DNA of 64,000 bases from positions 8,503-72,502 of the forward strand of contig JAGDWP010000050.1 of NCBI GenBank assembly GCA_023269855.1. Reading direction: 5' to 3'. The notes under the pieces are model-generated. The model made no database searches. It was not told the origin of the DNA and saw nothing but the letters and a program-made list of their open reading frames with translations. Position 1 is the first letter of the stretch, and the number at the start of each line of letters is the position of its first letter. Shown piece by piece: positions 47,470-61,900 of this stretch. This stretch comes from Nitrososphaerales archaeon (GTDB taxonomy: Archaea; Thermoproteota; Nitrososphaeria_A; Caldarchaeales; Wolframiiraptoraceae). The translations under genes were made by a program, and so were the position numbers.

Positions 47470-48510
47470 TCATTCTAAGATAGATACGTTTTTAAGTGGT
47501 TTCACAGTTGAGGGTTTGTAGAATGGTTCTCTAAGCATGACCGCTCTGATGAATAGTTTCTCAAGTTCTTCATCTGATGCTCCAGCTCTCATAGGTGTTA
47601 AGAAGTCTACTAAGTTGTCGTTCCGCATTAAGCATGGCTTGAATTTTCCATCATGAGTTATTCTTATCCTATCATCGTTCATGCAGAACTCATAGTTATT
47701 GTTAGGTCTAACAACTTCAACCCATACATCATTAGGTAAGAGATACTGTTTCCTCATGTGAAGACTTCTAGTAACAGTTTTTACAGCTGTTTTCTCAAAC
47801 CTCTCTTCGAGCTCTCTTAAGCTATAATAGTATTTATTGAAGAATTCTGTATTTGCTGCACCTTCTTCTACTAATTCTATCAACTGTAAGATGACTTTGC
47901 TCCCGAACTGTGAGGCAAAATCTATTAGACTATCTATTTCATTATGGTTTACATTTTTCATGATGACAACATTTAGTTTTACAGGTGCTAGACCAGCTTC
48001 AACCGCTGACCTTATCGCGTCAACTGTGTATTCAAATCTAGTGCTTCCCTCACTTCTAGTCGCTGTACCTGTTATCCAGCAATATTTTTCCCTGCTCACT
48101 GTATGGAGACTTATGTTAACTCTTGTCATTCCTGCTCTTCTAAGCTTCTTGGCCATGGATACTAGCCGAGTACCATTAGTAGTCATGCTTAAATCGTCTA
48201 GACCCAGTTTTCCAAGGCGTTCAACTATTTCTAGAATGTCTCTACGGAGCATTGGTTCACCTCCACTCAGTTTAACTTTTCTTATATTGTACTTGAAGAG
48301 GAGTCTAACAATTCTCTCAATTTCTTCAGGGGTCATAAGTGTATCAGATTCAGAAGTGACTACTCCCTCCATGTGGCAGAAGATGCATCTGAAATTACAG
48401 CTATAACTTGGATTAACAGAAACTCTAAGACCCTTTAATGGTCTATTGTATCTATCAATTATCAGCAAGATCCAATTATTCCTCCAATGCTTTAGTAAAA
48501 GATTCCGCAA
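47470..48510 (-). CDS. moaA: GTP 3',8-cyclase MoaA (radical SAM)
   Basis: 'CNFRCIFCH' radical-SAM cluster and C-terminal second-cluster cysteines. Confidence 0.7.
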   Translation of the reverse strand: MRNLLLKHWRNNWILLIIDRYNRPLKGLRVSVNPSYSCNFRCIFCHMEGVVTSESDTLMTPEEIERIVRLLFKYNIRKVKLSGGEPMLRRDILEIVERLGKLGLDDLSMTTNGTRLVSMAKKLRRAGMTRVNISLHTVSREKYCWITGTATRSEGSTRFEYTVDAIRSAVEAGLAPVKLNVVIMKNVNHNEIDSLIDFASQFGSKVILQLIELVEEGAANTEFFNKYYYSLRELEERFEKTAVKTVTRSLHMRKQYLLPNDVWVEVVRPNNNYEFCMNDDRIRITHDGKFKPCLMRNDNLVDFLTPMRAGASDEELEKLFIRAVMLREPFYKPSTVKPLKNVSILE

Positions 48511-49601: not shown

Positions 49602-50747
49602 TCATATATTGCTTAATGCGTTATCGATGTCTTCGATTAAGTCTTCAATGTCTTCTAATCCTACTGATAAACGTAATAAGTCTTCTGTTATACCTAATTT
49701 CTCTCTAACATCTCTAGGCATAGTTAATGCTGCACTGATAATTGGATATGTGAGTATCGATTCAGCACCTCCTAGACTTGGAGCAGGCTTGATTATCTTC
49801 AAGCTGTTCATCAACTTTCTTACTTCTTCTTCACCGCCTCTTATTCTGAAGCTTACTACTCCGCCGAAGCCTTTTTTGAATAGTTTTCGAGCTAGGTTAT
49901 GATATTTATTGTTAGGTAGACCAGGATATAGAACTTCTTTGATCTTTGGGTGGTCTTCAAGATATTCAGCAATGATTTGAGCATTCTTACAATGCTTCTC
50001 CATTCTCAGCTCAAAAGTCTTTAACCCTCTCATTATCAAGAATGCTTCAAAGGGTGGAAGGATTGTTCCAAGCATTCTTCTCCAATCCCATATCTGTAGT
50101 ATTTTTTCTCTTCTCGATATTACAGCTCCACCAACTACGTCATTATGTCCTGCTAGATATTTAGTTAAGCTGTGGATTATTATCTCTACTCCATCTCTGG
50201 ATGGTTTATATAGGTAGGGTGTAGCAAAAGTATTGTCTACAGCAAGTATTGTATTGTTCTCTTTACATACTTTCGATATTTCAGGGACGTCGAATACTCT
50301 TAAAGTTGGATTCGTCATAGTCTCAATCAAGACTAGTCTTGTGTTCTTATCTATAGATTCGATTATATTTTCTGTTTCAGGCCATGAGGTCTTGACTTCA
50401 ACTCCGAAATCTCTAAGCTTCTCTCCTAATTGAAGAGTAGTTCCATAAGATTCAGCTGATAAAACTATTTTATCACTTTTCTTAAGTGTTGAAAAGTATA
50501 TCGTGGAGATAGCTGCCATACCGCTGGAGAAACAGAGAGAGTCTTCACCATCCTCTAATTCTGCTAATATATTTTCTAATGCTTTTACTGTTGGGTTCTC
50601 CTCCCTACTGTACTTTAAATCAACCCCTCTATCGGTTTTCCGAGTCCATCCAGGCTGCTCAAAGATAGCTGTCTGATATATGGGCGGGATAAATACTCCT
50701 AAGACTTCATCTCTATATTTATGTCCATGAATAGATCTTGTCTGCAG
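49602..50747 (-). CDS. Cys/Met-metabolism PLP enzyme (cystathionine gamma-synthase/gamma-lyase family); homology-supported extent, ORF-track Met is internal
   Basis: PLP Lys motif 'SLTKYLAGHNDVVGG'; in-frame upstream translation '…SIHGHKYRDEVLGVFIPPIYQTAIFEQP…' matches family N-terminus, but no ATG/GTG/TTG between stop 50754-56 and 50519. Confidence 0.75.
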   Translation of the reverse strand: MQTRSIHGHKYRDEVLGVFIPPIYQTAIFEQPGWTRKTDRGVDLKYSREENPTVKALENILAELEDGEDSLCFSSGMAAISTIYFSTLKKSDKIVLSAESYGTTLQLGEKLRDFGVEVKTSWPETENIIESIDKNTRLVLIETMTNPTLRVFDVPEISKVCKENNTILAVDNTFATPYLYKPSRDGVEIIIHSLTKYLAGHNDVVGGAVISRREKILQIWDWRRMLGTILPPFEAFLIMRGLKTFELRMEKHCKNAQIIAEYLEDHPKIKEVLYPGLPNNKYHNLARKLFKKGFGGVVSFRIRGGEEEVRKLMNSLKIIKPAPSLGGAESILTYPIISAALTMPRDVREKLGITEDLLRLSVGLEDIEDLIEDIDNALSNI

Positions 50748-50889
50748 GGCTGATTAAGTATCTATCTAGCCAGGATATATATTTTTCCCTGTCATCCTCA
50801 GATTCTCCAAAGAGACATAACGATTATGAGCGAAAAGAAACAGAATTTTCAATTGTAATTGTAAGCGAATAACTCTGCTAGTGGTTATT

Positions 50890-52128
50890 TCATGCTTTTG
50901 TAGCTGTAGCTATTTCATTCAACGCTGTTGTTAAGTAGTCTATTTCTTCTTTATTATTGTATAGGTAAAGGCTTGCTCTAACCGTTCCTTCAATGTTCAA
51001 TCGTTGATGGAGTGGGTGAGCACAATGTTTACCCGTTCTTACAGCTACACCATAACCGTCTAGTAAACTACCAACTATATTCGAGTCCAGCTCTTTAATA
51101 TTGAATGCAATTATTCCACCACGATCCGATATGTTGTTTGGACCGTAAATAGTTATGGCGTCTCCTAATTCAGATAATCTCTTTAGAGTGTAGTCGGTTA
51201 GTTCTTCTTCATATTTTCTTACGTTATCCATTCCTATTCTCTCTAAATAGTCTACTGCTGCACCAAGCCCTAATACTCCAGCTATATGGGGTGTTCCTGC
51301 TTCGAAGCGGTGTGGTGGATCCAGGAGAACAAAATCTCTTAAAGTTACTTCTCTGATGGCTCCTCCACCAAGCCTGAATGGAGATAATTCTCCTAGAAAG
51401 TCTCTTTTAACCCACAGTATTCCTACACCTGTAGGCCCAAGCATCTTGTGTCCACTGAATGCGAGGAAGTCGATTTCCAATTCTCTAACATTTACAGGCA
51501 TGTGTGGTACTGATTGTGCTCCATCCACTATTATGACTCCGCCTACTTCATGTATTCTCCTCGCAATATTCCTAACGTCAACTATTGTTCCGAGAACGTT
51601 AGACATATGAGTGACTGAAACTATCTTAGTTTTCTCACTTATTTTTTCATCTAGCTCATTACGATTAATTAATCCATCGTTTGTGATGTCTATATAGTTT
51701 ATTTTAGCTCCCGTCATAGAGGACATCATCATCCATGGGAGAATATTGCTATGATGCTCCATGACTGTTAAGAGAATTTCATCTCCAGGCTTCAGTATTC
51801 TTAGAGCATAACTGTATGCCAGCATATTGAGGGAATCGGTGGTTCCATATGTGAAGATTATCTCTTCAGGACTATATGCATTTATGAATTTTGCAACCTT
51901 TTCTCTAACATCCTCATATCTTGAGGTAGCTTGTTGACTAAGAAGATGGACTCCACGATGAACATTGCTATACTCGTTTAGATAAAATTCTCTTATCGTT
52001 TCTATAACTTGGATAGGTTTAAGAGATGAAGCAGCACTATCAAGATAGATTAAACGTCCGCCTCTTATCTTCTTCTTCAAGATAGGGAAATCCTCACGTA
52101 TCTCTTCAACTTTAAGGGACGGCATCAT
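50890..52128 (-). CDS. sufS: cysteine desulfurase, SufS/CsdA type
   Basis: PLP Lys 'SGHKMLGPTGVGIL', C-terminal catalytic 'RTGKHCAHPL'. Confidence 0.85.
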   Translation of the reverse strand: MMPSLKVEEIREDFPILKKKIRGGRLIYLDSAASSLKPIQVIETIREFYLNEYSNVHRGVHLLSQQATSRYEDVREKVAKFINAYSPEEIIFTYGTTDSLNMLAYSYALRILKPGDEILLTVMEHHSNILPWMMMSSMTGAKINYIDITNDGLINRNELDEKISEKTKIVSVTHMSNVLGTIVDVRNIARRIHEVGGVIIVDGAQSVPHMPVNVRELEIDFLAFSGHKMLGPTGVGILWVKRDFLGELSPFRLGGGAIREVTLRDFVLLDPPHRFEAGTPHIAGVLGLGAAVDYLERIGMDNVRKYEEELTDYTLKRLSELGDAITIYGPNNISDRGGIIAFNIKELDSNIVGSLLDGYGVAVRTGKHCAHPLHQRLNIEGTVRASLYLYNNKEEIDYLTTALNEIATATKA

Positions 52129-52295
52129 CCTTGAGAAGCATAATCGGAAATATAAGAGCTTCTCAACAACTATCCTTCTTGTATCACTTCTGAAGATTCA
52201 AGCACTAAAACAGGTAACTATGATATTATAGATTCCGCTATGAATAACCTGCAAGTTGCTCCAGATTATTTGAAGAAGTATTCAGGGTTGAGGGG

Positions 52296-52535
52296 CTACT
52301 TAGAGTAGATGACGGTTACTTTTGTCCCGTTTTTCTCAACTATTTCAAACTTTAAGTTCCTCTTGTTTGCAAGCATCTCCAAAACTTTCAAGGGTACTTC
52401 TCTTTCATCCGATGTTACTCTCAACACTGCTTTTCCTTCTTCTACTCTTGCTAGTAACTGTGTTAATCTTATCACAGGATTTTCTGTACATCCAGGCTTT
52501 CTCTCTCTAAGATCTACAGAGTATTCATCCATCAT
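52296..52535 (-). CDS. TusA/SirA-like sulfur carrier (variant CxxxP motif)
   Basis: 'VDLRERKPGCTENPVIRL…AVLRVTSDE' follows TusA architecture with GCTENP in place of CPxP; 4-nt overlap with iscU. Confidence 0.5.
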   Translation of the reverse strand: MMDEYSVDLRERKPGCTENPVIRLTQLLARVEEGKAVLRVTSDEREVPLKVLEMLANKRNLKFEIVEKNGTKVTVIYSK

Positions 52536-53029
52536 GGTACCGTTCCGTATTTCCGATATAATCTCTCAATTAACTCTTCTTCCTCTAATGCTTGCCTTTC
52601 TTCTTTACTCAAATCCCTTGGAAGCCATTCAGGATGTTCTTTCCTGACTTCTTCAAAGTATCTTCTAATCGCTCTTTTCAATCCTCCAACAGCTAGGATA
52701 CTGCAATGATATTTTATAGATGGTAGTCCGCCAAGCTCATTTGTTACATCTTCCCAAGTTATATCCCATGCTTCTTTCAGAGTCTTGTTCTTCACCATCT
52801 CAGTAATGATACTTGCAGCGGCAATATTCGCTGCACATCCATAACTCTCAAACGATGCATCAATTATTTTATCTCCATTGATCTTTAGATATATTGTGAT
52901 TACGTCACCGCATGCAGGGCTTCCAGCTTGAGATGAAACGGATGCATCTTCCATTCTACCTAGATTCTTAGGATTCCTGAAGAGCTCAAGGATTTTAGGA
53001 GTATATATTAAGGGGGTTCTCGTGCTCAT
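52532..53029 (-). CDS. iscU: IscU/NifU-like Fe-S scaffold with C-terminal extension
   Basis: 'GSPACGDVI', 'ESYGCAAN', 'KYHCSILA' three-Cys scaffold motifs. Confidence 0.8.
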   Translation of the reverse strand: MSTRTPLIYTPKILELFRNPKNLGRMEDASVSSQAGSPACGDVITIYLKINGDKIIDASFESYGCAANIAAASIITEMVKNKTLKEAWDITWEDVTNELGGLPSIKYHCSILAVGGLKRAIRRYFEEVRKEHPEWLPRDLSKEERQALEEEELIERLYRKYGTVP

Positions 53030-54318
53030 GCTTCCACCGTCTTCTTCAAAGCTATCCTACTTTCTCTAGCTAATGGGCTCATTATTCTAAGCTTCTCAAT
53101 CGCTGGTGGAATTTGTGATAAAACGTATTCTATGTCTTCTTCAGTTTGATACCTTGACACCTTGAACAGGATACTTCCATGGGCTTCTTCATGTTTTCTT
53201 CCAATAGCTAATATTACATGGCTTGGTTCTAAGACCCTGCTCGTGCAGGCGCTCCCACTTGAAACGTAGATTCCTCTCAAGCTTAACTCTACAGTGATTG
53301 ATTCTCCTTCAACATAGAGAAAGCTAACATTCAAATTATCTGGAGCCCTCTTTTCCCCCATAGGACCATTCAATAATACATCCGGGACATTTTCCAGAAT
53401 TCCATGCATTAATCTATCTCTAAGCTTCTTCATTTTCTCAATGTTATAGTCAAAGTTGCTGAAGGCTAATTCTACAGCTTTTTTAAAGCCTGCTAATGCA
53501 GGAGTATTCTCTACACCTGGCCACATTCTCTGCGTGCTTAAAGCTCCATGCATTACAGGTTTAAGCTTGACATCTTCTCGAGCATACAGTATTCCGATAC
53601 CTTTTGGACCATGAATCTTATGGCTACTCAATGTTAACAAGTCTACTCCAAGTTCTTCAACATCTATCTTCATTCTACCGTAAGCATCTACTGCATCAGT
53701 ATGGAAGATTATTTTATCGTTTTTGTCTTTAACTGTTTCTACAAGAGTTTTTATGTCTTGAATTGTCCCAATTTCATGATTTACCATCTGTATGCTTACC
53801 ATCAACGTCTCATGGTCGATTAGCATGCTTAACAAGTCTGGGTCTACGAATCCTTCCTTATCTACTGGTACTGTTACAACTCTGTAGCCATGTTCTTCCA
53901 GAGATCTTGCTGGGAATAGGACGCTTACATGCTCTATAGCCGAAGTTATAATCTTGTTTCTTTCTTTACCTCTAGCTAGTGCTCCCCCTATGATAGCTAG
54001 ATTATTTGCTTCAGTCCCACTATGGGTTAAGATTAATTCACCACCTCTGGCATTAATAGTCTTTGATACTTCTTCCAGCGTTGATTCCACGACTTCATAT
54101 GCTTCCCATCCAGGCAAGTTTGTTATCGATGGGTGCCCATATCCTTTCTGGTTAAAATATGGAAGCATCGCTTCTACAACTTCTGGAGGAACCCATCCTG
54201 AATTCTCATGATCGAGGTATACTTCTCTAACTGGTTTACCATGATATTTTATGAATTCTGATACTTTAGGCATGTTCTTCAATAACGTAGTTATATTAGC
54301 CTCATATAAACATATCAA
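53026..54318 (-). CDS. iscS: cysteine desulfurase, IscS/NifS type
   Basis: 'SSHKIHGPKGIGILY' PLP Lys, 'SSGSACTS' catalytic Cys loop. Confidence 0.85.
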   Translation of the reverse strand: MICLYEANITTLLKNMPKVSEFIKYHGKPVREVYLDHENSGWVPPEVVEAMLPYFNQKGYGHPSITNLPGWEAYEVVESTLEEVSKTINARGGELILTHSGTEANNLAIIGGALARGKERNKIITSAIEHVSVLFPARSLEEHGYRVVTVPVDKEGFVDPDLLSMLIDHETLMVSIQMVNHEIGTIQDIKTLVETVKDKNDKIIFHTDAVDAYGRMKIDVEELGVDLLTLSSHKIHGPKGIGILYAREDVKLKPVMHGALSTQRMWPGVENTPALAGFKKAVELAFSNFDYNIEKMKKLRDRLMHGILENVPDVLLNGPMGEKRAPDNLNVSFLYVEGESITVELSLRGIYVSSGSACTSRVLEPSHVILAIGRKHEEAHGSILFKVSRYQTEEDIEYVLSQIPPAIEKLRIMSPLARESRIALKKTVEA

Positions 54319-54415
54319 CTTAACTTATTTTTGATGATGTATCGGTGCTGTCAAATAGTTTTGAATTATTAAGCATTTATCGGCGAGCTCAGTTTCTAGA
54401 ATAACTTCCTAGTTA

Positions 54416-55132
54416 TTAATCCTCCATTAATTCTATTTCCTGGATAAAGTCTCCATGCCATGAGTGGTACCAGACATCTCCTGAAAATCCATTAACACTC
54501 AGCATTCCATGAACTACACCATCGAGCTTGTAATCCAGCGTATAGTATCCATAGAAAATTGTTGGTTTTTCAACATCTATTTCTCGACCTGGAAAGACCT
54601 GTGAGAGATATTTGTATGCGATTTTAACTGCTTCTTCACTTGAAACAGGCATCTCATAAGGATAAGCAAAAGTCCATTGACCCATCATACCCTGCATTCT
54701 ATTATGCATCCCATATTTTAGATTCCACATCATATTCGGACCAGGCTCAGGGCTTATCACACCAGTATATGGATCGATGATTAATTCGAAAGCACCCCAC
54801 CCAGTCTCATCTTCAGCTGCGATTGCATAGAAGTTGTTGCTAAACTCCATTATTTCAATTATGGATAATCCTCTCCATCTAGAGATATAAGCCTCTAACT
54901 TTTCTCGTACATCATAAATGCTTAATCTTTCCTGAGTGTTTTGAGAGTATCCCCTAGGTTGATACAGTCCATAATGCATAGGGCATCCCTGCCACCAATT
55001 CATCATACCATATGGAGGGTTAGATGTCTGAGCAGCCACTGTATTTATCCATAAGACAATACTTACTGAAATAATTAGTAGTGAGATCAGAACGATTCCT
55101 ATTATGAGAAATCTTCTATTAGGATTGCTCAT
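54416..55132 (-). CDS. membrane-anchored hypothetical protein (N-terminal TM, extracytoplasmic domain)
   Basis: Single N-terminal TM helix; Met/Trp/Tyr-rich domain; adjacent to YHS genes. Confidence 0.4.
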   Translation of the reverse strand: MSNPNRRFLIIGIVLISLLIISVSIVLWINTVAAQTSNPPYGMMNWWQGCPMHYGLYQPRGYSQNTQERLSIYDVREKLEAYISRWRGLSIIEIMEFSNNFYAIAAEDETGWGAFELIIDPYTGVISPEPGPNMMWNLKYGMHNRMQGMMGQWTFAYPYEMPVSSEEAVKIAYKYLSQVFPGREIDVEKPTIFYGYYTLDYKLDGVVHGMLSVNGFSGDVWYHSWHGDFIQEIELMED

Positions 55133-55141
55133 GCTCTCACC

Positions 55142-55345
55142 TTAGCAACAATGTGAGTGAGATGAATGCCTATGCTTCTCTTCAGCAGCTTCTTTTTCAA
55201 CGTATTTTTCAGGGTTTCTTTCAAACTCTCTTCTACAATCCTCTGAGCAGAAGTAGTATGTAGTTCCCTCATATATAATTGAGAGTGAATTCTTCTCGAC
55301 AGCCATTTTACAAACAGGATCTGTAAATTTCTTCTTCCCAAACAC
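55142..55345 (-). CDS. YHS/TRASH-domain metal-binding protein
   Basis: 'DPVCKMAV…YYFCSEDCRREFERNPEKY' YHS motif; His/Cys-rich tail HRHSSHSHCC. Confidence 0.7.
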   Translation of the reverse strand: MFGKKKFTDPVCKMAVEKNSLSIIYEGTTYYFCSEDCRREFERNPEKYVEKEAAEEKHRHSSHSHCC

Positions 55346-55519
55346 TTCTAATCAAGTAGTATATCGTTAGGCATCTATTTTTGGAGAACGTATTTTTCAT
55401 CACTAAATGTAGCGTTTTGTAATCTCATCAATATTCCTGAAAGAAAAAGTATATTACATATTCGTTAAAGATTAGTTTTTATTTAAGGATCTTACTTTTA
55501 AAGCTATATCATTTAGAGG

Positions 55520-56053
55520 TTATGGACCTTCTTTTATCTCGATTACTACTGCGTGGTCGCTTAGGGAAAAGTATGCATTTATTCCTATTCTTTCGAAGAT
55601 CGGTTGGATGAAGTGGGCGATGAATAGGGAGCCTTTACCGCCCAGAGTATGCATGAGAGTTATTACTTTCTTTTCATCTTTGTCTACTTCATTGTATTCA
55701 AAGAGGTTAGCATAGATGGATAGACTCCGCAAGTATTCAAGTACGGTTTCAAGGTTTAGTGTTCCATGTTTAGCTAATATGAATGGTTCTGAGACTTCTT
55801 TCCCCGCATTATAGCTAGCTCGTATAACCGCTTCATCAGGTATAGCTTCTAGTATATATCGTAATGCGAGACTAGACAATCGGATGAAATTAAACTTCTT
55901 AGCATATTTATCAAAGTTTGTATATGATAAAATTATCTGATTTACAAGAGTATTCACACTAATATTCTGTGTTTGAGCTTCTTCCTGTAATGCTTTTAGA
56001 GATAGCTCGCTTATCCTAAAAGACCGTGTAACAGTTCTGTCAGATCTTATCAA
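55520..56053 (-). CDS. putative transcriptional regulator (RHH/HTH-like N-terminus plus ligand-binding domain)
   Basis: N-terminal 'RSFRISELSLKALQEEAQTQNISVNTLVNQIIL' DNA-binding-like segment; flanked by two YHS genes. Confidence 0.35.
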   Translation of the reverse strand: MIRSDRTVTRSFRISELSLKALQEEAQTQNISVNTLVNQIILSYTNFDKYAKKFNFIRLSSLALRYILEAIPDEAVIRASYNAGKEVSEPFILAKHGTLNLETVLEYLRSLSIYANLFEYNEVDKDEKKVITLMHTLGGKGSLFIAHFIQPIFERIGINAYFSLSDHAVVIEIKEGP

Positions 56054-56148
56054 GACTGTGGATAAATCTTTCGCAGGGATATAAAAATATTAATGTAGGA
56101 GAGAAAAGGTTAAGAAACTCGTCTTATCAATAAACTCTGGTGTAGCAA

Positions 56149-56295
56149 ATGGCTATAGATCCTGTTTGTGGAATGAATGTTGATGAGAAGAAGGCAAAGT
56201 ATGTTTCAGAATACAAAGCTAGGAGATACTATTTCTGTTCATCAACATGCAAAAATTTGTTCGATAAAGATCCTCAGAAATACGTAAAATCATAG
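56149..56295 (+). CDS. small YHS-domain protein (48 aa), unlisted in ORF track
   Basis: MAIDPVCGMNVDEKKAKYVSEYKARRYYFCSSTCKNLFDKDPQKYVKS: canonical DPVCGM…YYFCS…C YHS motif. Confidence 0.6.
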   Translation: MAIDPVCGMNVDEKKAKYVSEYKARRYYFCSSTCKNLFDKDPQKYVKS

Positions 56296-56310
56296 TTGAA
56301 TCAATCTAGT

Positions 56311-56562
56311 CTACTTTCGTATGGTTATTTTCCATAATGCTTCTTCTAAACGCTCAAGGGTGAGTACTTGACATCCTTTTCTGATAGCTGCCTCCTTTAT
56401 CGTTTCACATGATGGTTGATTATCAAATAGTACTTCTAATACTTCTCCTTCCTTAATCTTATCTAATGCTTTAACAGTATATAACACTGGGTATGGACAG
56501 GGAAGCCCTATTATCTTTAGGATATATCTACCTGATTCAAGCTGAACCAATTCTACTACCAT
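56311..56562 (-). CDS. tusA: TusA-like sulfurtransferase
   Basis: 'GLPCPYPVL' CPxP motif; overlaps 3' end of sulfite reductase-like gene by 26 nt. Confidence 0.75.
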   Translation of the reverse strand: MVVELVQLESGRYILKIIGLPCPYPVLYTVKALDKIKEGEVLEVLFDNQPSCETIKEAAIRKGCQVLTLERLEEALWKITIRK

Positions 56563-58027
56563 AATTGTATCCTCTCCTCATCAATTCATCAGCAAATTCA
56601 TTAAAGTTTTCATAACTACTTTCAATAAATAATCTGAGTATATCTTCTACTACCAAGGATACATGCTCAGACGGGATATTCTTCACTAATAATTTCGCAA
56701 GCTTTGAATTACTTCCACGTACGTATAAGTTGTAGCATGTAATAGTCTTTTCATTCTCTCTAATTATAGTCGATTGTAGACCAATGTCGGAGACGATGTG
56801 CTGAGCACAACTGTTCGGGCATCCACTAATAGATATAGTTATGTCCAGTTTACTTATCTGATCTTTTAATTCATCTTCTAAGTTCTTTAGTAGAGTGACC
56901 GCTCTCATCTTACTACTCTCACTAGTTTTACCGCAGAAATCGCTTGGACAAGCTCTCACTCTATATTTAATTAACGGTTGACCAGGGTCTAACCCTATCT
57001 CCTTCAGTTCTTCTTTAACTCTATCAAGTTCTTCTCTTGGAATGTGGGGAATTATTATTTTCTGTGAAGGAGACACCCTAATCTCAGAACTATATCTTTC
57101 AGATATGTTGATTATCTCTTTAAACTGGTGAACATTTAATAGCCCTGTAAAAGTAGGAACGGTCAAGGAGTATAACCCTTGAATATTTTCAGGCACTATT
57201 ATATCATGCTCTCTCCAAACAATGGATAGGTAGCTAGCGTCAAATATTGGAAAAGGTTTACCTATACGTTCCTCTATCATATCTTTTATCTTTTCAACAC
57301 CTAATTCTTTTACAAGCCATTTGAACCTTGACATGCTCTTTCTTTCTCTGAACCCATGTTCGTTATAGATTTCTACAACGGTTTTAATAAATTCGAGAGA
57401 TTCTCGTAGTGGAATAAAGATGTTCAGTGGTTGTGCTATGAATGGTGGGTAACCTATGCTTCCACCTATAAACGGTGTGAAACCTAACCCATGATCTGTC
57501 TTTACAGCGATTAATGCTAGATCGTTTACTTCAGGTTTAATGCAATGGATTGGGCATGCTGAAATCCCTATCTTAAATTTTCTCGGTAGGTTAAGGTATT
57601 CTTTCTTTCCAGTAAAAAATCTGACTACATCTCTAACTATTGTATATGTTTCGAATAATTCACCATTCTGGATCCCTGTAAATGGGCATGTTGTTATATT
57701 TCTGATATCACCGTACCCTGCCTTCGGATAATGTTGACCACACATATCTGTGTATAATCCAGCTTCTTCAAGCTTGCTAAAAACTTCGATAGAGTCTTCA
57801 TCCCTAATCCAATGAAGCTGTATATTATGTCTAGTGGTAACTTCAAGATATCCTCTACCATATTTTTCTGATAATTCAGCAATTGTCCTCGCTTGGTCTA
57901 TTGTTAAGATCCCTCCTACAACCTTTATGCGGAGGAAGTGTTTAGAGCCATTTCCAGATTCAGAGCCTAAAGCGTATCTTCCAAGAAATCTATCTAGTTC
58001 ACTTACCTGGATCTGTAGGTTTGCCAC
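56537..58027 (-). CDS. ferredoxin-type sulfite/nitrite reductase hemoprotein (siroheme-[4Fe-4S])
   Basis: 'TTCPFTG…GISACPIHC' and 'ISGCPNSCAQH' siroheme/4Fe-4S cysteine clusters; two NIR_SIR repeats. Confidence 0.75.
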   Translation of the reverse strand: MANLQIQVSELDRFLGRYALGSESGNGSKHFLRIKVVGGILTIDQARTIAELSEKYGRGYLEVTTRHNIQLHWIRDEDSIEVFSKLEEAGLYTDMCGQHYPKAGYGDIRNITTCPFTGIQNGELFETYTIVRDVVRFFTGKKEYLNLPRKFKIGISACPIHCIKPEVNDLALIAVKTDHGLGFTPFIGGSIGYPPFIAQPLNIFIPLRESLEFIKTVVEIYNEHGFRERKSMSRFKWLVKELGVEKIKDMIEERIGKPFPIFDASYLSIVWREHDIIVPENIQGLYSLTVPTFTGLLNVHQFKEIINISERYSSEIRVSPSQKIIIPHIPREELDRVKEELKEIGLDPGQPLIKYRVRACPSDFCGKTSESSKMRAVTLLKNLEDELKDQISKLDITISISGCPNSCAQHIVSDIGLQSTIIRENEKTITCYNLYVRGSNSKLAKLLVKNIPSEHVSLVVEDILRLFIESSYENFNEFADELMRRGYNYGSRIGSA

Positions 58028-58084
58028 CCCGGTTGTTTGTATTCATAACACCGTTATATAAATATATTCGTCCTACGCAATAAA

Positions 58085-59269
58085 TTGGAAAAAGTGAACA
58101 ATAATTATGGTGAATTGGAAACTAATAACTTGATGATCTCAAGACCGCTCATCGAAGACATTATAGAATGCTTAAGGAGGGACTACCTAAAACCTATGAA
58201 AAATAAGGTTATAAAACTTAATGATGTCTCAATCATCGTTAAACTCGAGTATCCTGAAGACTTCTTGACTGATCCTTTGAGAACTATAAAGCGGAAACCT
58301 GCTAGCCTACTCTTTGAGGATGTATTTAGTAAAGGGTTGCTTAAACAAGGAAGAACAATTATCACTGCTTCTTCAGGTAATTTTTTGAGAGAGCTAGCTC
58401 TAATAGCTCTCAACCGTGGATTTAAGATTATAGGTGTTACACCTCCGAGGATTCCATATGAAAGCTTAAAGATCTTAACATCACTTGGAGTCAACATACT
58501 CCATATTAGTGAAGAATATGATCTGTGTCCAAGAGAGACGACAGTTTTCTATACTAGAAGCTTAGCTGAGAGGTATAGATTCAATCTTGTAAACATAGAC
58601 CAGTATAATAGCTGGCAAAATGTTATGGCCCATTTGTACATGACATGGAATGAAATAAAAGACCTCGGAGAAATAGATTATGCCTGCATACCTCTAGGAA
58701 GTACTGGAACATTCATGGGAATTACTACTGGGTCTAATCTCGAAAAATGGGATATGAAAATTATAGGAGTCCAGCCAACAAAATATCATCATATTCCAGG
58801 CGTCCATCACATAGTTGGAGATTGCGAATGGAGTCCGGAAATATTCACTCCTCTAATCAGTAGAGAAATAGTAACAGTCGACGACGTCGATGCGTATGCT
58901 GGCTTAATAATGTTATGGAAGAACGGTATACCTGCAGGTCCATCAACAGGAATGACCTTCATCCAAGCAGTTAAGCTTGCTGAAAAAGTTAAAGAAGGCA
59001 GGATCCTAACCATATCCGCGGACAGCATCTTTGCTTACAGAGATTATGTACTAGAATACGTAAAGGAGATAAAAGAACAGATAATTGATAGATATCCTGA
59101 ACTAGCTGAAGAATACGTAAGATATGTTGAATGGTTAAAGAAGCTTCCAGGCCTCGATCAAAGAATGGAATTGATTAAGAAATTATATAGGGTGGCGGAT
59201 GAAGCCGGTAGAGTTTACAGATTTGATAATGAAGAAGATTTGCTGAAAGAGATAAAGATATCAACTTAA
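58085..59269 (+). CDS. PLP-dependent Trp-synthase-beta-fold enzyme, CysK/CysM-like, divergent, with ~110-aa C-terminal extension
   Basis: 'IITASSGNFLRELALIALNRGFKIIGVTP' (TSGN loop) and glycine-rich 'GSTGTFMG'; putative PLP Lys in 'TIKRK'. Confidence 0.5.
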   Translation: MEKVNNNYGELETNNLMISRPLIEDIIECLRRDYLKPMKNKVIKLNDVSIIVKLEYPEDFLTDPLRTIKRKPASLLFEDVFSKGLLKQGRTIITASSGNFLRELALIALNRGFKIIGVTPPRIPYESLKILTSLGVNILHISEEYDLCPRETTVFYTRSLAERYRFNLVNIDQYNSWQNVMAHLYMTWNEIKDLGEIDYACIPLGSTGTFMGITTGSNLEKWDMKIIGVQPTKYHHIPGVHHIVGDCEWSPEIFTPLISREIVTVDDVDAYAGLIMLWKNGIPAGPSTGMTFIQAVKLAEKVKEGRILTISADSIFAYRDYVLEYVKEIKEQIIDRYPELAEEYVRYVEWLKKLPGLDQRMELIKKLYRVADEAGRVYRFDNEEDLLKEIKIST

Positions 59270-59348
59270 AAATGTGGAGGAGGGAAAAAGTTATAAGCAA
59301 GAAAAATTTGATGAATGACCTAGGAGGTTAGGAGAACTATCAGAGAAA

Positions 59349-60572
59349 ATATATCTAAAATGTAGAGATTGTGGGAAATCTTATCCTCCTCTTCTCCAAT
59401 ACATATGCCCAAGCTGTTTTGGTGCATTAGATGTTGAATACACAGGTTTAGAAGACCTTAGGATAAATCCCCAAGAGTTATCAACTAGGAGAAAAGATAT
59501 CTGGAGATACATAGAGCTGCTACCTATACTAGATTCTAATAACATCATATCGCTGGGAGCAGGATATACTGGGTTGATTCCTTCCACTAGATTGTCTAAG
59601 AAGCTAGGCTTAAGAAAACTATACTTAAAAGAAGATTTTACAAATCCAACTCATTCATTTAAAGATAGAGCTGCAAGCGTAGCTGTCTCTAAAGCTTTGG
59701 AATTCAGATTAAATGCTGTTGGATGCGCTTCAACAGGAAATCTTGCAGCTGCTGTCTCAGCCCGTGCTTCTAGAGCAGGTTTACCCTGCTACATCTTCGT
59801 TCCTAAAGGTGTAGAAAAAGAGAAACTATCACATGCGTTATCCTATGGTGCTAGACTCATTATAGTAGATGGAACATATGATGAAGCAAACTGGATGGCG
59901 GCACGATTCGCAGAAGAATACAACGTAGGCATAGTAAACGTGAACATTAGACCATACTATGTTGAAGGATCTAAAACGCTTGCATACGAAATATGTGAAC
60001 AACTTGGTTGGAGAACACCTGACCACATAATTATCCCAATGGCTAGCGGTGCCTTATTAAACGCTATAGATAAAGGGCTGAGAGAATTAAAGACCATAGG
60101 CTTAATCGAGGGTGAAGTAAGAGTTTCTGGAGTCCAACCTGAAGGTTGCTGTCCAATAGTATCAGCATATAAAGAGAATACTGAGTATATTAAGCCAGTC
60201 CGTGAAATAAATACAATAGCAGTGAGTCTCGCGATAGGCAACCCAGGAGACGGTGTATACGCTTTAAGGACTATAAGGAGAACTAAAGGTGTCGCAGTAG
60301 CAGTCAGTGATAGAGAGATTCTTGAAGCTGTAAAAGAGCTAGCACAATTGGAAGGATTATTCGTAGAGCCTGGAGCTGCAGTGACAGTTGCAGGTCTTAA
60401 GAAGATGATTGAAGAAGGATCTGTAGATAGAGATGAAGAGGTTGTCTGTCTTCTCACGGGTTCTGGTGTAAAGACGCCATCTATCATCCAAGAATATACT
60501 ATCAACCCTATCACAGTTAAACCTTCCACTATTGAATTATCTAAAATATTGGAGGTGAGAAAGACTGGCTAG
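59349..60572 (+). CDS. threonine-synthase-like PLP enzyme (ThrC/MetM-like) with N-terminal zinc ribbon; homology-supported extent, track start TTG 59574 is internal
   Basis: PLP Lys 'HSFKDRAAS'; upstream in-frame 'YLKCRDCGKSY…YICPSCFG' zinc ribbon open from stop 59316-18 with no ATG/GTG/TTG; ATA at 59349. Confidence 0.7.
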   Translation: MYLKCRDCGKSYPPLLQYICPSCFGALDVEYTGLEDLRINPQELSTRRKDIWRYIELLPILDSNNIISLGAGYTGLIPSTRLSKKLGLRKLYLKEDFTNPTHSFKDRAASVAVSKALEFRLNAVGCASTGNLAAAVSARASRAGLPCYIFVPKGVEKEKLSHALSYGARLIIVDGTYDEANWMAARFAEEYNVGIVNVNIRPYYVEGSKTLAYEICEQLGWRTPDHIIIPMASGALLNAIDKGLRELKTIGLIEGEVRVSGVQPEGCCPIVSAYKENTEYIKPVREINTIAVSLAIGNPGDGVYALRTIRRTKGVAVAVSDREILEAVKELAQLEGLFVEPGAAVTVAGLKKMIEEGSVDRDEEVVCLLTGSGVKTPSIIQEYTINPITVKPSTIELSKILEVRKTG

Positions 60573-60573
60573 G

Positions 60574-60861
60574 ATTAAGCTCATTCTTCCATCGGTTCTA
60601 GCTGAGGGTGGTGATAGAAATAGAGTGCTTGAAGCTTCTACGCTTAGAGACGTTATCGAGTATTTATGTAAGATAAAACCTGAATTGAGAGATCGGATAA
60701 TCTCTCCGAACGGCGAACTAAATAGATTCTTTAATTTCTATGTGAATGGTGTTAATGCGTATTTTATAAACGGAGCTGATACCTTGTTGAAGGATGGAGA
60801 CGAGGTTTCAGTCATACCTGCTCTAGGGGGAGGACAAAGTGGAAACAAGAAACATTACTGA
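60574..60861 (+). CDS. CysO-type ubiquitin-like sulfur carrier protein (ThiS/MoaD fold), Gly-Gly-Gly followed by 8-residue tail
   Basis: 'LNRFFNFYVNGVNAYF…DGDEVSVIPALGGG' closely parallels M. tuberculosis CysO C-terminal half; beta-grasp N-terminus 'IKLILPSVLAEGG' lies upstream of track GTG start (ATT at 60574). Confidence 0.65.
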   Translation: MKLILPSVLAEGGDRNRVLEASTLRDVIEYLCKIKPELRDRIISPNGELNRFFNFYVNGVNAYFINGADTLLKDGDEVSVIPALGGGQSGNKKHY

Positions 60862-61900
60862 TGAAGAATTCGAGCTATATTCTAGGCAGATAGTCCTCAA
60901 TGTCATCGGTTTTGAGGGACAGGAAAAATTAAAGAATTCAAGAGTTGCAATCGTAGGGCTGGGAGGCTTAGGGTCTCCTATTGCTATGACTTTAACAGCT
61001 ATGGGTGTAGGATATATTAGGATCATCGATAGAGATGTAGTCGAGAAATCTAACCTGCATAGACAACACTTATACACATTTAAAGATATAGGAACACCGA
61101 AAGTTGAAGCAGCCTCAAAGAGATTGAAGGAGATGAACCCATACGTTGAGATCGACCCCTACCCTGTATACATTGATGATTCAACTGCTCTGGAAGTTGT
61201 TAGAGATGTAGACTTAGTACTAGATGGACTGGACAATTTTAAGGCTAGAAGAGCTATCAATAAAGCATGCTATAAGCTATCAATACCGTACATATATGCT
61301 TCAGCTATAGAGACATACGGTATGGTTACAACTTTAATCTCTAGAGAGGGGCCCTGCCTTGAATGTATTTTTCCAAATATTTCAGACCAGAACCTGCCCA
61401 CATGCTCTACAGTAGGTGTACATCCATCAATACTCCAAATAATTTCAAGTATTGAAGTCTACGAAGGCGTCAACATATTAATGGGGAGGAAGTCAAGACT
61501 TTCTGGAAAACTTTTAGTATATGATTTAGAAGATTTATCAACTACATTCTTAGACATAAAAAAATCTCCCAATTGCTCTGTATGTGGAGGGAGAGAAGTA
61601 GTCAAGGAGACAGTCACATATCCACAAATCGAGGAAACATGCTCTAGAGAAGGCAGAATCACGTTTATCATTAATCCAGGAAGGATAGACCCAATTGAGA
61701 TCCAGAAATTAGCTAAGATTATTTCTGAGCATGGATACGTGATATCTAATATTAGTGAGCTAGGGTTAACATTTAGATTAGATGGTAACATTATCTTTAG
61801 CATATTGAAGACAGGGGTTGGGATAATAGAAGGTGCACACTCTAGAGAATATGCTCTCAAAGTTTATGAAGACATATTGAAAAAAGTTATAAACTTTTAG
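60839..61900 (+). CDS. E1-like activating enzyme (MoeB/ThiF/MoeZ family) with unassigned C-terminal domain
   Basis: 'LYSRQIVL', 'VAIVGLGGLGSP' nucleotide loop, two CxxC pairs (CLECIFP…PTCS; CSVCGG); GTG start overlaps CysO-like tail. Confidence 0.8.
   Translation: METRNITDEEFELYSRQIVLNVIGFEGQEKLKNSRVAIVGLGGLGSPIAMTLTAMGVGYIRIIDRDVVEKSNLHRQHLYTFKDIGTPKVEAASKRLKEMNPYVEIDPYPVYIDDSTALEVVRDVDLVLDGLDNFKARRAINKACYKLSIPYIYASAIETYGMVTTLISREGPCLECIFPNISDQNLPTCSTVGVHPSILQIISSIEVYEGVNILMGRKSRLSGKLLVYDLEDLSTTFLDIKKSPNCSVCGGREVVKETVTYPQIEETCSREGRITFIINPGRIDPIEIQKLAKIISEHGYVISNISELGLTFRLDGNIIFSILKTGVGIIEGAHSREYALKVYEDILKKVINF

Follow-up and report, generated by a model that had tools for sequence, protein, structure and literature searches.

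The 64,000-nucleotide stretch of DNA analysed here (the window) comes from an uncultivated hot-spring archaeon of the Caldarchaeales (alias Aigarchaeota), and its region between 50 and 62 kb codes for SufS, TusA-like proteins, IscU, IscS and a sulfite-reductase-like protein, as well as two PALP-family enzymes, a ThiS-family carrier and a ThiF-family E1. Three of the about 54 genes in the window, a CGS-like gene (encoding a Cys/Met-metabolism pyridoxal phosphate (PLP) enzyme), a ThrC/MetM-like gene and a CysO/MetO-like sulfur-carrier gene, have family-conserved N-termini yet no in-frame ATG, GTG or TTG codon ahead of them (Table 1). The Pfam families PALP, ThiS and ThiF are matched by three successive genes in an order that is conserved among relatives. 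The ThrC-like protein shares 87% identity with its counterpart in Candidatus Geocrenenecus arthurdayi (L001) and 76% with the one in a Caldarchaeales metagenome-assembled genome (MAG; L002), and its best bacterial matches are from Streptomyces at ∼44% identity. Proteins identical to the truncated calls of the CGS-like and ThrC-like genes (P0016 and P0241) are recorded from NCBI, JGI, ENA and Logan assemblies. A tRNA search of the window found no tRNA genes.

Table 1. Coordinates of the three genes, their candidate start codons and associated signals in the window (ORF, open reading frame; BRE, transcription factor B recognition element).
Feature	Coordinates	Strand	Remarks
CGS-like gene (Cys/Met-metabolism PLP enzyme), stop-to-stop ORF	49602..50753	-	Pfam PF01053, E=3.9e-117
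CGS-like gene, probable coding region	49602-50747	-	starting at CTG
CTG, probable CGS-like start	50745..50747	-	invariant codon; coding constraint begins there
ATT of the earlier note, CGS-like	50730..50732	-	Ile of conserved S-I-H-G
BRE/TATA-like promoter element AGGGAAAAATATATAT, CGS-like	50775..50790	-	GAAAAATATAAAT conserved in relatives
ThrC/MetM-like gene (N-terminal zinc ribbon and PALP), maximal coding region	59322..60572	+	Pfam PALP, E=4e-75
ThrC/MetM-like stop-to-stop ORF	59319-60572	+	ORF table
GTTATAAG, TATA box of ThrC-like gene	59290..59297	+	clade-conserved, fixed distance to AGGAGG
AGG AGG, Shine-Dalgarno-like	59322..59327	+	aligns with family ATG GAG(G) start; at predicted transcription start
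CTA TCA GAG AAA	59337..59348	+	first codons with coding-type constraint; upstream of ATA
ATA of the earlier note, ThrC-like	59349..59351	+	conserved Ile/Val position of family
CysO/MetO-like sulfur-carrier gene (ThiS family)	60565..60861	+	Pfam ThiS; orthologues start TTG CCT AG[GA] here
CysO/MetO-like stop-to-stop ORF	60559-60861	+	ORF table
CTG, probable CysO-like start	60565..60567	+	aligned with TTG of orthologues
ATT of the earlier note, CysO-like	60574..60576	+	conserved Ile/Val residue
ThiF/MoeZ-like E1 gene	60839..61900	+	canonical GTG start (ATG in L001); Pfam ThiF, E=1.6e-74

The lack of canonical starts had been pointed out in an earlier note on this DNA, and the stops, candidate codons and first canonical starts, read directly from the sequence and in agreement with the ORF tables, match the coordinates given there. 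In each of the three genes Pfam homology reaches beyond the first canonical start into the upstream sequence. None of 16 control ORFs with a long open stretch before the first canonical start (10 in the window and 6 in related loci) has upstream domain homology, and among the genes tested in the window and related loci the defect is restricted to these three; the neighbouring Fe-S and sulfite-reduction genes retain canonical starts. The note's contention that three cases in one cluster are not a matter of chance is borne out by these counts. Nei-Gojobori estimates of the ratio of non-synonymous to synonymous substitutions (dN/dS) for the segments upstream of the first canonical start are low (0.02-0.14 overall), indicating that these segments are translated and constrained, and the frames remain open across species despite saturated synonymous divergence.

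The same state is found in other records. The DNA at the CGS-like start is identical in L161, L162 and L163, from JGI, ENA and Logan assemblies (L162 and L163 possibly derive from the same reads), and P0241, the shortened ThrC-like protein, has been recorded from NCBI, Logan and ENA. Prodigal-type calls in all public assemblies give products of 305, 332 and 78 aa for the CGS-like, ThrC-like and CysO-like genes, shortened from ∼381, ∼411-416 and 98 aa, and gene callers likewise cut the orthologues of relatives to 305-326 aa (CGS-like; 95, 85, 84, 79, 78 and 77% identity) and 332-374 aa (ThrC-like; 93, 88, 83, 78 and 77% identity). We conclude that three functional genes of the homocysteine/methionine module have lost their ancestral canonical starts, and that their N-termini are still translated; with no canonical start in frame, initiation is non-canonical, one of the possibilities that the note had raised.

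An Rfam scan returned no match at the gathering score, and in E-value mode gave only a chance STAXI match at 54560. Predicted mRNA structures at the three starts show no excess stability over shuffled controls (z = -0.18, -0.72 and +1.14). In the minimum-free-energy fold at the ThrC-like start, CCTCCT at 59385-59390, which encodes the Pro-Pro of a conserved YPP motif, can pair with AGGAGG at 59322-59327 (z = -0.18 versus shuffled).

In the CGS-like gene, the in-frame stop TAA (50756-54) is followed by TCA GCC CTG (50747-45) CAG ACA AGA TCT ATT (50732-30) CAT GGA CAT, and the first canonical start, ATG 50519, lies 78 codons in, at ORF residue 79. Positions 1-380 of the 381 in the Cys_Met_Meta_PP model align to ORF residues 4-380, and residue 4, where the alignment begins, is the one directly after the CTG. 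The 76 N-terminal codons have a dN/dS of 0.02-0.05 against five relatives, compared with 0.05-0.10 for the remainder of the gene. In all relatives GAAAAATATAAAT is followed by 26-28 unconserved bases, a fixed distance, and then by CTG CAG ACN. The CTG is unchanged in seven lineages, though CTG makes up just 6.6% of Leu codons, and the neighbouring Thr codon appears as ACA, ACG, ACT and ACC. The Q-T-(R/K)-S codons between the CTG and the ATT carry a coding signature, varying synonymously, and the Ile codon alternates between ATT, ATA and ATC. Because the upstream codons are coding, ATT 50730, which the earlier note had proposed, is the Ile of S-I-H-G and not the start. In L170, the NCBI annotation pipeline (PGAP) takes the ATA at this position for the start (P0012, 'MHGHK').

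Comparison with relatives suggests how the CGS-like start was lost. L172 and L173 have a TTG two codons ahead of the CTG (protein MTLQTK), and at that position the window clade has TCA (window, L164), TCG (L166) or ACA (L165, L168). L170 has a CTG at the TTG position, preceded by ATC; the near-identical sister protein P0009 begins ML-TLQTK, implying a canonical codon where L170 has ATC. This ATC (L170, ∼2979-2981) is present in L170 and three other MAGs, sister proteins beginning with M there, which suggests that near-identical MAGs of one Nitrososphaerota lineage, a single species group, are polymorphic between a canonical and a near-cognate codon. The T of TATAA lies 28 nt from the TTG/TCA, inside the 25-35 nt span of the window's leaderless genes, which places the CTG, at 34-36 nt, ∼4-6 nt from the 5′ end predicted at ∼50751-50753. 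The CGS-like gene is absent from the syntenic loci L001 and L002, and was considered as an insertion or pseudogene; this was dropped, since eight other relatives keep the order IscS-IscU-TusA-SufS-CGS-Kae1.

In the CysO-like gene, the stop TGA (60556-58) is followed by GAA AGA CTG (60565-67) GCT AGG ATT (60574-76) AAG CTC, and the first canonical start is GTG 60625 at ORF residue 23; judged from the ThiS alignment, the start should lie at about residue 3-6. Compared with the relative at 93% identity, dN/dS is 0.12 for the segment upstream of the GTG and 0.12-0.14 for the gene. Of six related lineages, five, namely L174 (the 93%-identical relative), L001, L176, L002 and L177, have TTG CCT AG[GA] followed by ATT, GTT, GTG or GTA at the homologous position, indicating that the family start is TTG and that its equivalent in the window is CTG 60565. 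In the seven-lineage alignment the start reads CTG GCT AGG ATT in the window and CTG CCT AAG ATA in L179, and by parsimony a TTG-to-CTG switch would have occurred twice independently, in the window lineage and in L179. Among 2,468 reconstructed ancestral UUG starts, a large survey recorded just 1 switch of this type (PMC5622118). The 3′ edge of the Shine-Dalgarno sequence, GGAGGTGA (60551-60558), is 6 nt ahead of CTG 60565, and the spacing to the CTG in this gene, 6-9 nt, is within the 4-12 nt range of the window. The CTG lies inside the last codons of the ThrC-like gene and overlaps its stop (CTGGCTAG). The position of ATT 60574, proposed as the start in the earlier note, reads ATT, ATT, GTT, GTT, ATA, GTG and GTA across lineages and is 15-18 nt past the Shine-Dalgarno sequence, beyond the window range; it is a conserved Ile/Val residue three codons downstream of the orthologous TTG.

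At its other end the carrier of the window (60835-60861), like that of L174, runs 8-9 residues beyond the C-terminal GGG (QSGNKKHY), and the GTG start of the ThiF-like gene at 60839 falls within this extension. The carriers of L001, L176, L179 and L002 end directly after GGG. From its sequence, the extended carrier would need proteolytic trimming (JAMM/Mec-type) to a diglycine end before activation.

In the ThrC-like gene, the stop TGA (59316-18) is followed by CCT AGG AGG TTA GGA GAA CTA TCA GAG AAA ATA (59349-51) TAT CTA AAA TGT. The first canonical start, TTG 59574, lies 85 codons in (residue 86), past the zinc ribbon and inside PALP, position 1 of the Pfam PALP model being at residue 77. 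The 79 N-terminal codons have a dN/dS of 0.07-0.14, and the remainder of the gene 0.06-0.08. The window, L174, L001, L176 and L179 read AGG AGG xxx xxx xxx CT[AC] TC[AG] GA[GC] AA[AG] ATA, and L002 and L177 read AAG GGG GGT xxx xxx GA[AG] CTC [AGC/TCA] [AAA/CGA] GAG AT[AT]. The wider family begins M-E-(G/V)-x-x-L-x-(Y/H)-(V/I)-K-x-L-K-C, coded ATG GAG G.., and its ATG aligns with AGG 59322, which is invariant in the window and the four relatives sharing the first pattern. AGGAGG lies 28-30 nt past the T of a GTTATAA box, separated by a wholly unconserved spacer. This is the geometry of the window's leaderless ATG and TTG genes, and transcription is therefore predicted to start at the AGG, at ∼59321-59323; L082 and L087 have GTG at the equivalent predicted 5′ end. 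The sole near-cognate codon upstream is this AGG (AAG in the L002/L177 branch), and distant relatives (L003, L090, L094, L095 and L100) have no in-frame canonical start either.

Substitutions ahead of the ATA are phased by codon. Within the five-lineage clade, the four codons before it differ at four sites, each of them a third position (1 of 495 arrangements), and between L002 and L177 a Ser is kept through an AGC-TCA exchange and Lys is swapped with Arg; the three codons upstream of CTA 59337 vary freely. Translation thus probably begins at or upstream of CTA 59337, and the ATA is unlikely to be the sole start. The earlier note had proposed ATA 59349, a conserved codon, with ATA in six lineages and ATT in L177, where PGAP calls it as the start (P0122, 'MYLKC'); with the four upstream codons translated, a role as sole start is possible but unlikely. 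The ATA aligns with the internal [VI] of bacterial M-P-A-K-Y-[VI]-K-G-L-K-C, and is 21 nt past GGAGG, beyond the spacer range of the window. In an AlphaFold model of the ThrC-like protein (predicted local distance difference test score 88.9), residues 1-7 are disordered and of low confidence, and whether the conserved Leu belongs to the fold, and hence which start is used, is not discriminated by the model.

A near-invariant CTC (CTA or TTC in some) occurs 7-10 nt past GGAGG/GGGGG in ∼20 divergent metM homologues from archaea. Even in L003, L090, L093, L094, L095 and L100, which lack the ATG of ATGGAGG or have it in another frame, this codon remains in frame. Its conservation is at the nucleotide level; the Leu codon of the nearby L-K-C motif, in contrast, varies freely.

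The explanation that we favour, with a little more confidence than doubt, is that all three genes initiate at weak non-canonical codons where the ribosome is already positioned. In the CGS-like gene, the 5′-terminal TTG of a leaderless mRNA would have decayed to TCG, TCA or ACA, and initiation would have moved two codons downstream to the CUG at 50747-45, 4-6 nt from the 5′ end. In the MetO-like gene the TTG start would have turned into CUG (60565), kept usable by the strong Shine-Dalgarno sequence GGAGGTGA with its 6-nt spacer and by translational coupling through the overlap with the ThrC-like stop. In the MetM-like gene the family's leaderless AUG(GAGG) may have become AGG(AGG), and the best start candidate would be the 5′-terminal AGG 59322, with a codon 6-9 nt after the new 5′-terminal GGAGG, or additional use of the ATA, as alternatives. 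The predicted consequence is low-level expression, which thermophiles that scavenge peptides may tolerate, or which may be mildly advantageous to them, in a biosynthetic pathway under low demand. Near-cognate codons account for ∼30% of putative alternative initiation sites in Haloferax volcanii ribosome profiling (Ribo-seq; PMC7261190), and Shine-Dalgarno pairing has been suggested to aid near-cognate initiation (PMC8459731).

The losses differ in age: that in the ThrC-like gene spans the whole clade, that in the CGS-like gene five lineages, and that in the CysO-like gene the window lineage, with a parallel event in L179. They are therefore not one coordinated event, as the earlier note had envisaged for a sulfur regulon, although the restriction to Met/Cys-biosynthesis (homocysteine/methionine) genes does hold for all three. 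The genes may share a putative transcriptional operator with the neighbouring sulfur genes, and the start losses would have arisen independently of each other.

Several points weigh against initiation at such positioned weak codons. AGG and AAG are among the worst near-cognates, and no candidate upstream of the ATA in the ThrC-like gene is a good start; the ORFs of L003, L095 and L100 are open for just 0-1 codon before the conserved Leu, so that neither AGG nor ATA fits well there, and a protein starting at the ATA would probably fold, residues 1-7 of the model being disordered. The CTG of the CGS-like gene corresponds to a conserved Leu/Phe in distant homologues, and its conservation is therefore partly at the amino-acid level. 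The transcription starts were placed from TATA geometry alone, and in the organisms tested so far leaderless mRNAs show a strong preference for AUG and use near-cognates very poorly (PMC8459731); because they normally need AUG, the mechanisms in the CGS-like and ThrC-like genes remain uncertain.

Initiation at AUU in the CGS-like and CysO-like genes and at AUA in the ThrC-like gene, as the earlier note proposed, is unlikely in our judgement. ATT and ATA are better near-cognates than AGG, NCBI PGAP annotates two orthologues in this way, the ATA/ATT is kept in every ThrC-like lineage, the ordered fold of the AlphaFold model begins at about K9/I10, and some family members begin directly with M-L-K-C (P0144). 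Against this stand the coding signatures in the codons ahead of each ATT or ATA, the relatives in which these ordinary conserved Ile/Val positions read GTT, GTA or GTG, and the distances from the Shine-Dalgarno sequences, which are too long for ATT and ATA and correct for the CysO-like TTG. For the ThrC-like gene alone, the start could instead be a non-cognate codon placed by GGAGG, either the Leu codon CTA/CTC or the codon preceding it, perhaps read by an elongator tRNA. This is quite unlikely: CUC and CUA are two mismatches from AUG, we know of no system that uses them efficiently as starts, the Leu/Phe alternation resembles amino-acid selection and so implies decoding as Leu and not Met, and in most of the family an in-frame ATG precedes this Leu codon by five codons. 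It would, though, account for a CT[CA] (TTC in three lineages) so nearly invariant at this spacing although CTC makes up only 11% of Leu codons, and for a coding constraint that begins exactly at the Leu codon in the window clade.

The remaining alternatives fare worse. Decay of the genes to pseudogenes, or production only of truncated proteins from the downstream canonical starts, agrees with the short gene calls, with the absence of a stop after GGG in the window's CysO-like gene, and with the GTG (ATG in L001) of the ThiF-like gene; it is very improbable given a dN/dS that, ahead of the canonical starts, does not exceed that of the remainder of each gene, and given frames that stay open at saturated synonymous divergence, and truncation would delete 75 of the 381 Pfam positions of the CGS-like protein, and the zinc ribbon and beginning of PALP in the ThrC-like protein. 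That a short ORF farther upstream feeds into the ThrC-like gene by programmed frameshifting or readthrough seems highly improbable. Short ATG-initiated ORFs in another frame do occur upstream in the window (59272 and 59311), L001 and L002, and an ATG one frame off is present in L090, L093 and L100, but these ORFs are not conserved in sequence, position or frame relation, most precede the predicted transcription start, and from L003 an ATG is missing altogether; neither a conserved upstream ORF in a fixed frame nor a slippery site was found in the window and related loci. Readthrough of TGA 59316 was also considered and rejected, there being no start farther upstream and nothing conserved. Although the genome is metagenome-derived, sequencing or assembly errors at all three sites are scarcely credible, since the assemblies described above agree, related species share the state, and the differences are substitutions and not homopolymer indels. 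The low N-terminal dN/dS and the independent assemblies together dispose of the pseudogene and artefact alternatives that the earlier note had left standing.

A more ambitious reading, that the non-canonical starts are functional and that Met/S-adenosylmethionine (SAM) pathway genes are expressed through initiation dependent on start-codon fidelity, we consider improbable. If it were true, one case would use a 5′-terminal AGG/AAG or a Shine-Dalgarno-positioned CUA/CUC, nowhere recognised as a start, and scarce methionine/SAM would relax fidelity, possibly through hypomethylated P-site rRNA or altered aIF1 activity, and raise synthesis of exactly these enzymes. Archaea would then have a counterpart of the infC AUU/IF3 logic, acting on a metabolic regulon.

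Some features elsewhere in the window deserve mention. An exact palindrome, ATAAC-N3-GTTAT, occurs twice (54282-54294 and 58045-58057) where 0.11 copies are expected, none of 100 shuffled sequences having at least two; both copies are in promoters of sulfur genes, those of the IscS operon and the divergent sulfite reductase (SiR)/PALP pair. It recurs in related loci (L086, 9948-9960; L082, 9925-9937; L003, 2682-2694; L168, 6449-6461), and related archaeal loci have 1-6 copies per ∼20 kb, often over the TATA box or the region close to the transcription start of metM and IscS homologues. The palindrome probably serves as operator for a repressor of a sulfur/methionine regulon.

Three further genes were considered as cases of start loss and dismissed: MoaA has a conserved TTG 12 nt past GGAGG, the PALP gene a TTG/ATG start at 58130/58133, and IscS an ATG 17 codons into its ORF that is the probable start. 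Public assemblies carry a wrong call of MoaA (47470-48510, minus strand), 300 aa long and begun at an ATG that lies past the radical-SAM cysteine motif, and the spacer to its TTG (M-L-I-I-D-R-Y), unusually long, is kept in all relatives. Between 55142 and 56295, two small YHS-domain-like CxxC proteins (55142-55345, minus strand, and 56149-56295, plus strand), whose genes exchange GTG and ATG starts between species, flank a 177-aa gene (55520-56053, minus strand) with no Pfam match, whose TTG start, ∼30 nt past a TATA box, is conserved in three species.

The shortening of all three proteins by gene callers, and the selection of an internal Ile codon as the start by the NCBI pipeline, place wrong models in every public assembly, and reconstructions of the methionine-synthesis route in the Caldarchaeales and related Thermoproteota therefore carry them. 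Repeated, gene-specific loss of start codons under strong purifying selection is a natural experiment on archaeal tolerance of non-AUG starts, and spans both leaderless and Shine-Dalgarno-led or coupled initiation. With Wolframiiraptor gerlachensis as a cultivated relative (PMC9246946), experimental testing is possible if that organism shares the features. The ThrC-like case is the most interesting because it has no good near-cognate codon available. Non-canonical starts as such, and NCBI annotation of orthologues with ATA/ATT starts, are already known; what is new is that the cases cluster within a single pathway and recur in several species, that the likely starts are corrected to CTG, and that the ThrC-like gene has no good start.

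The rare near-cognate starts CUG, AUU, AUA and AUC are permitted in prokaryotic translation table 11, and the genes described here resemble those that use them in being intact and conserved, with the only plausible start one base off AUG, GUG or UUG. A single-mismatch codon stands at an orthologous or ribosome-positioned site in the CysO-like and CGS-like genes (both CTG), the former with the kind of strong Shine-Dalgarno sequence that a weak start would be expected to have, while the ThrC-like gene offers only the weak AGG/AAG. They differ from such examples in that three cases lie within 10 kb in one pathway and recur across species, with two independent TTG-to-CTG switches in the CysO-like gene and no good near-cognate in the ThrC-like gene. 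The bacterial infC gene, encoding IF3, is autoregulated through its AUU start codon, and the present genes are alike in the logic by which a conserved non-canonical start ties expression to start-codon fidelity. However, they encode biosynthetic enzymes (PLP enzymes and a sulfur carrier) with no feedback loop evident and with CTG or AGG in place of AUU, and the codons are not conserved in the manner of infC: the CysO-like start is mostly TTG, the CGS-like position is TTG, CTG, TCA, ACA or TCG, and the ThrC-like position AGG, AAG, ATG or GTG.

Archaeal leaderless initiation offers a parallel for two of the genes, as many window genes have a TATA box 25-35 nt before the start, and orthologues of the CGS-like and ThrC-like genes carry TTG, ATG or GTG exactly at the predicted 5′ end. 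TATA geometry fits both genes, but the 5′-terminal start has been lost from them (TCA...CTG in the CGS-like gene and AGG in the ThrC-like gene), and the first six bases of the predicted ThrC-like mRNA are Shine-Dalgarno-like. The pathway itself may have a counterpart in Streptomyces, in the MetM/MetO/MoeZ thiocarboxylate route that converts O-phosphohomoserine to homocysteine (Hasebe et al. 2024, cited by a GapMind 2026 preprint). In the putative archaeal version the carrier of the window is extended past GGG, but a zinc-ribbon threonine-synthase homologue is likewise followed by a ThiS-family carrier and a ThiF/MoeZ-like E1, and by gene content and order the ThrC-like/ThiS-like/ThiF-like trio appears to match the MetM/MetO/MoeZ route.

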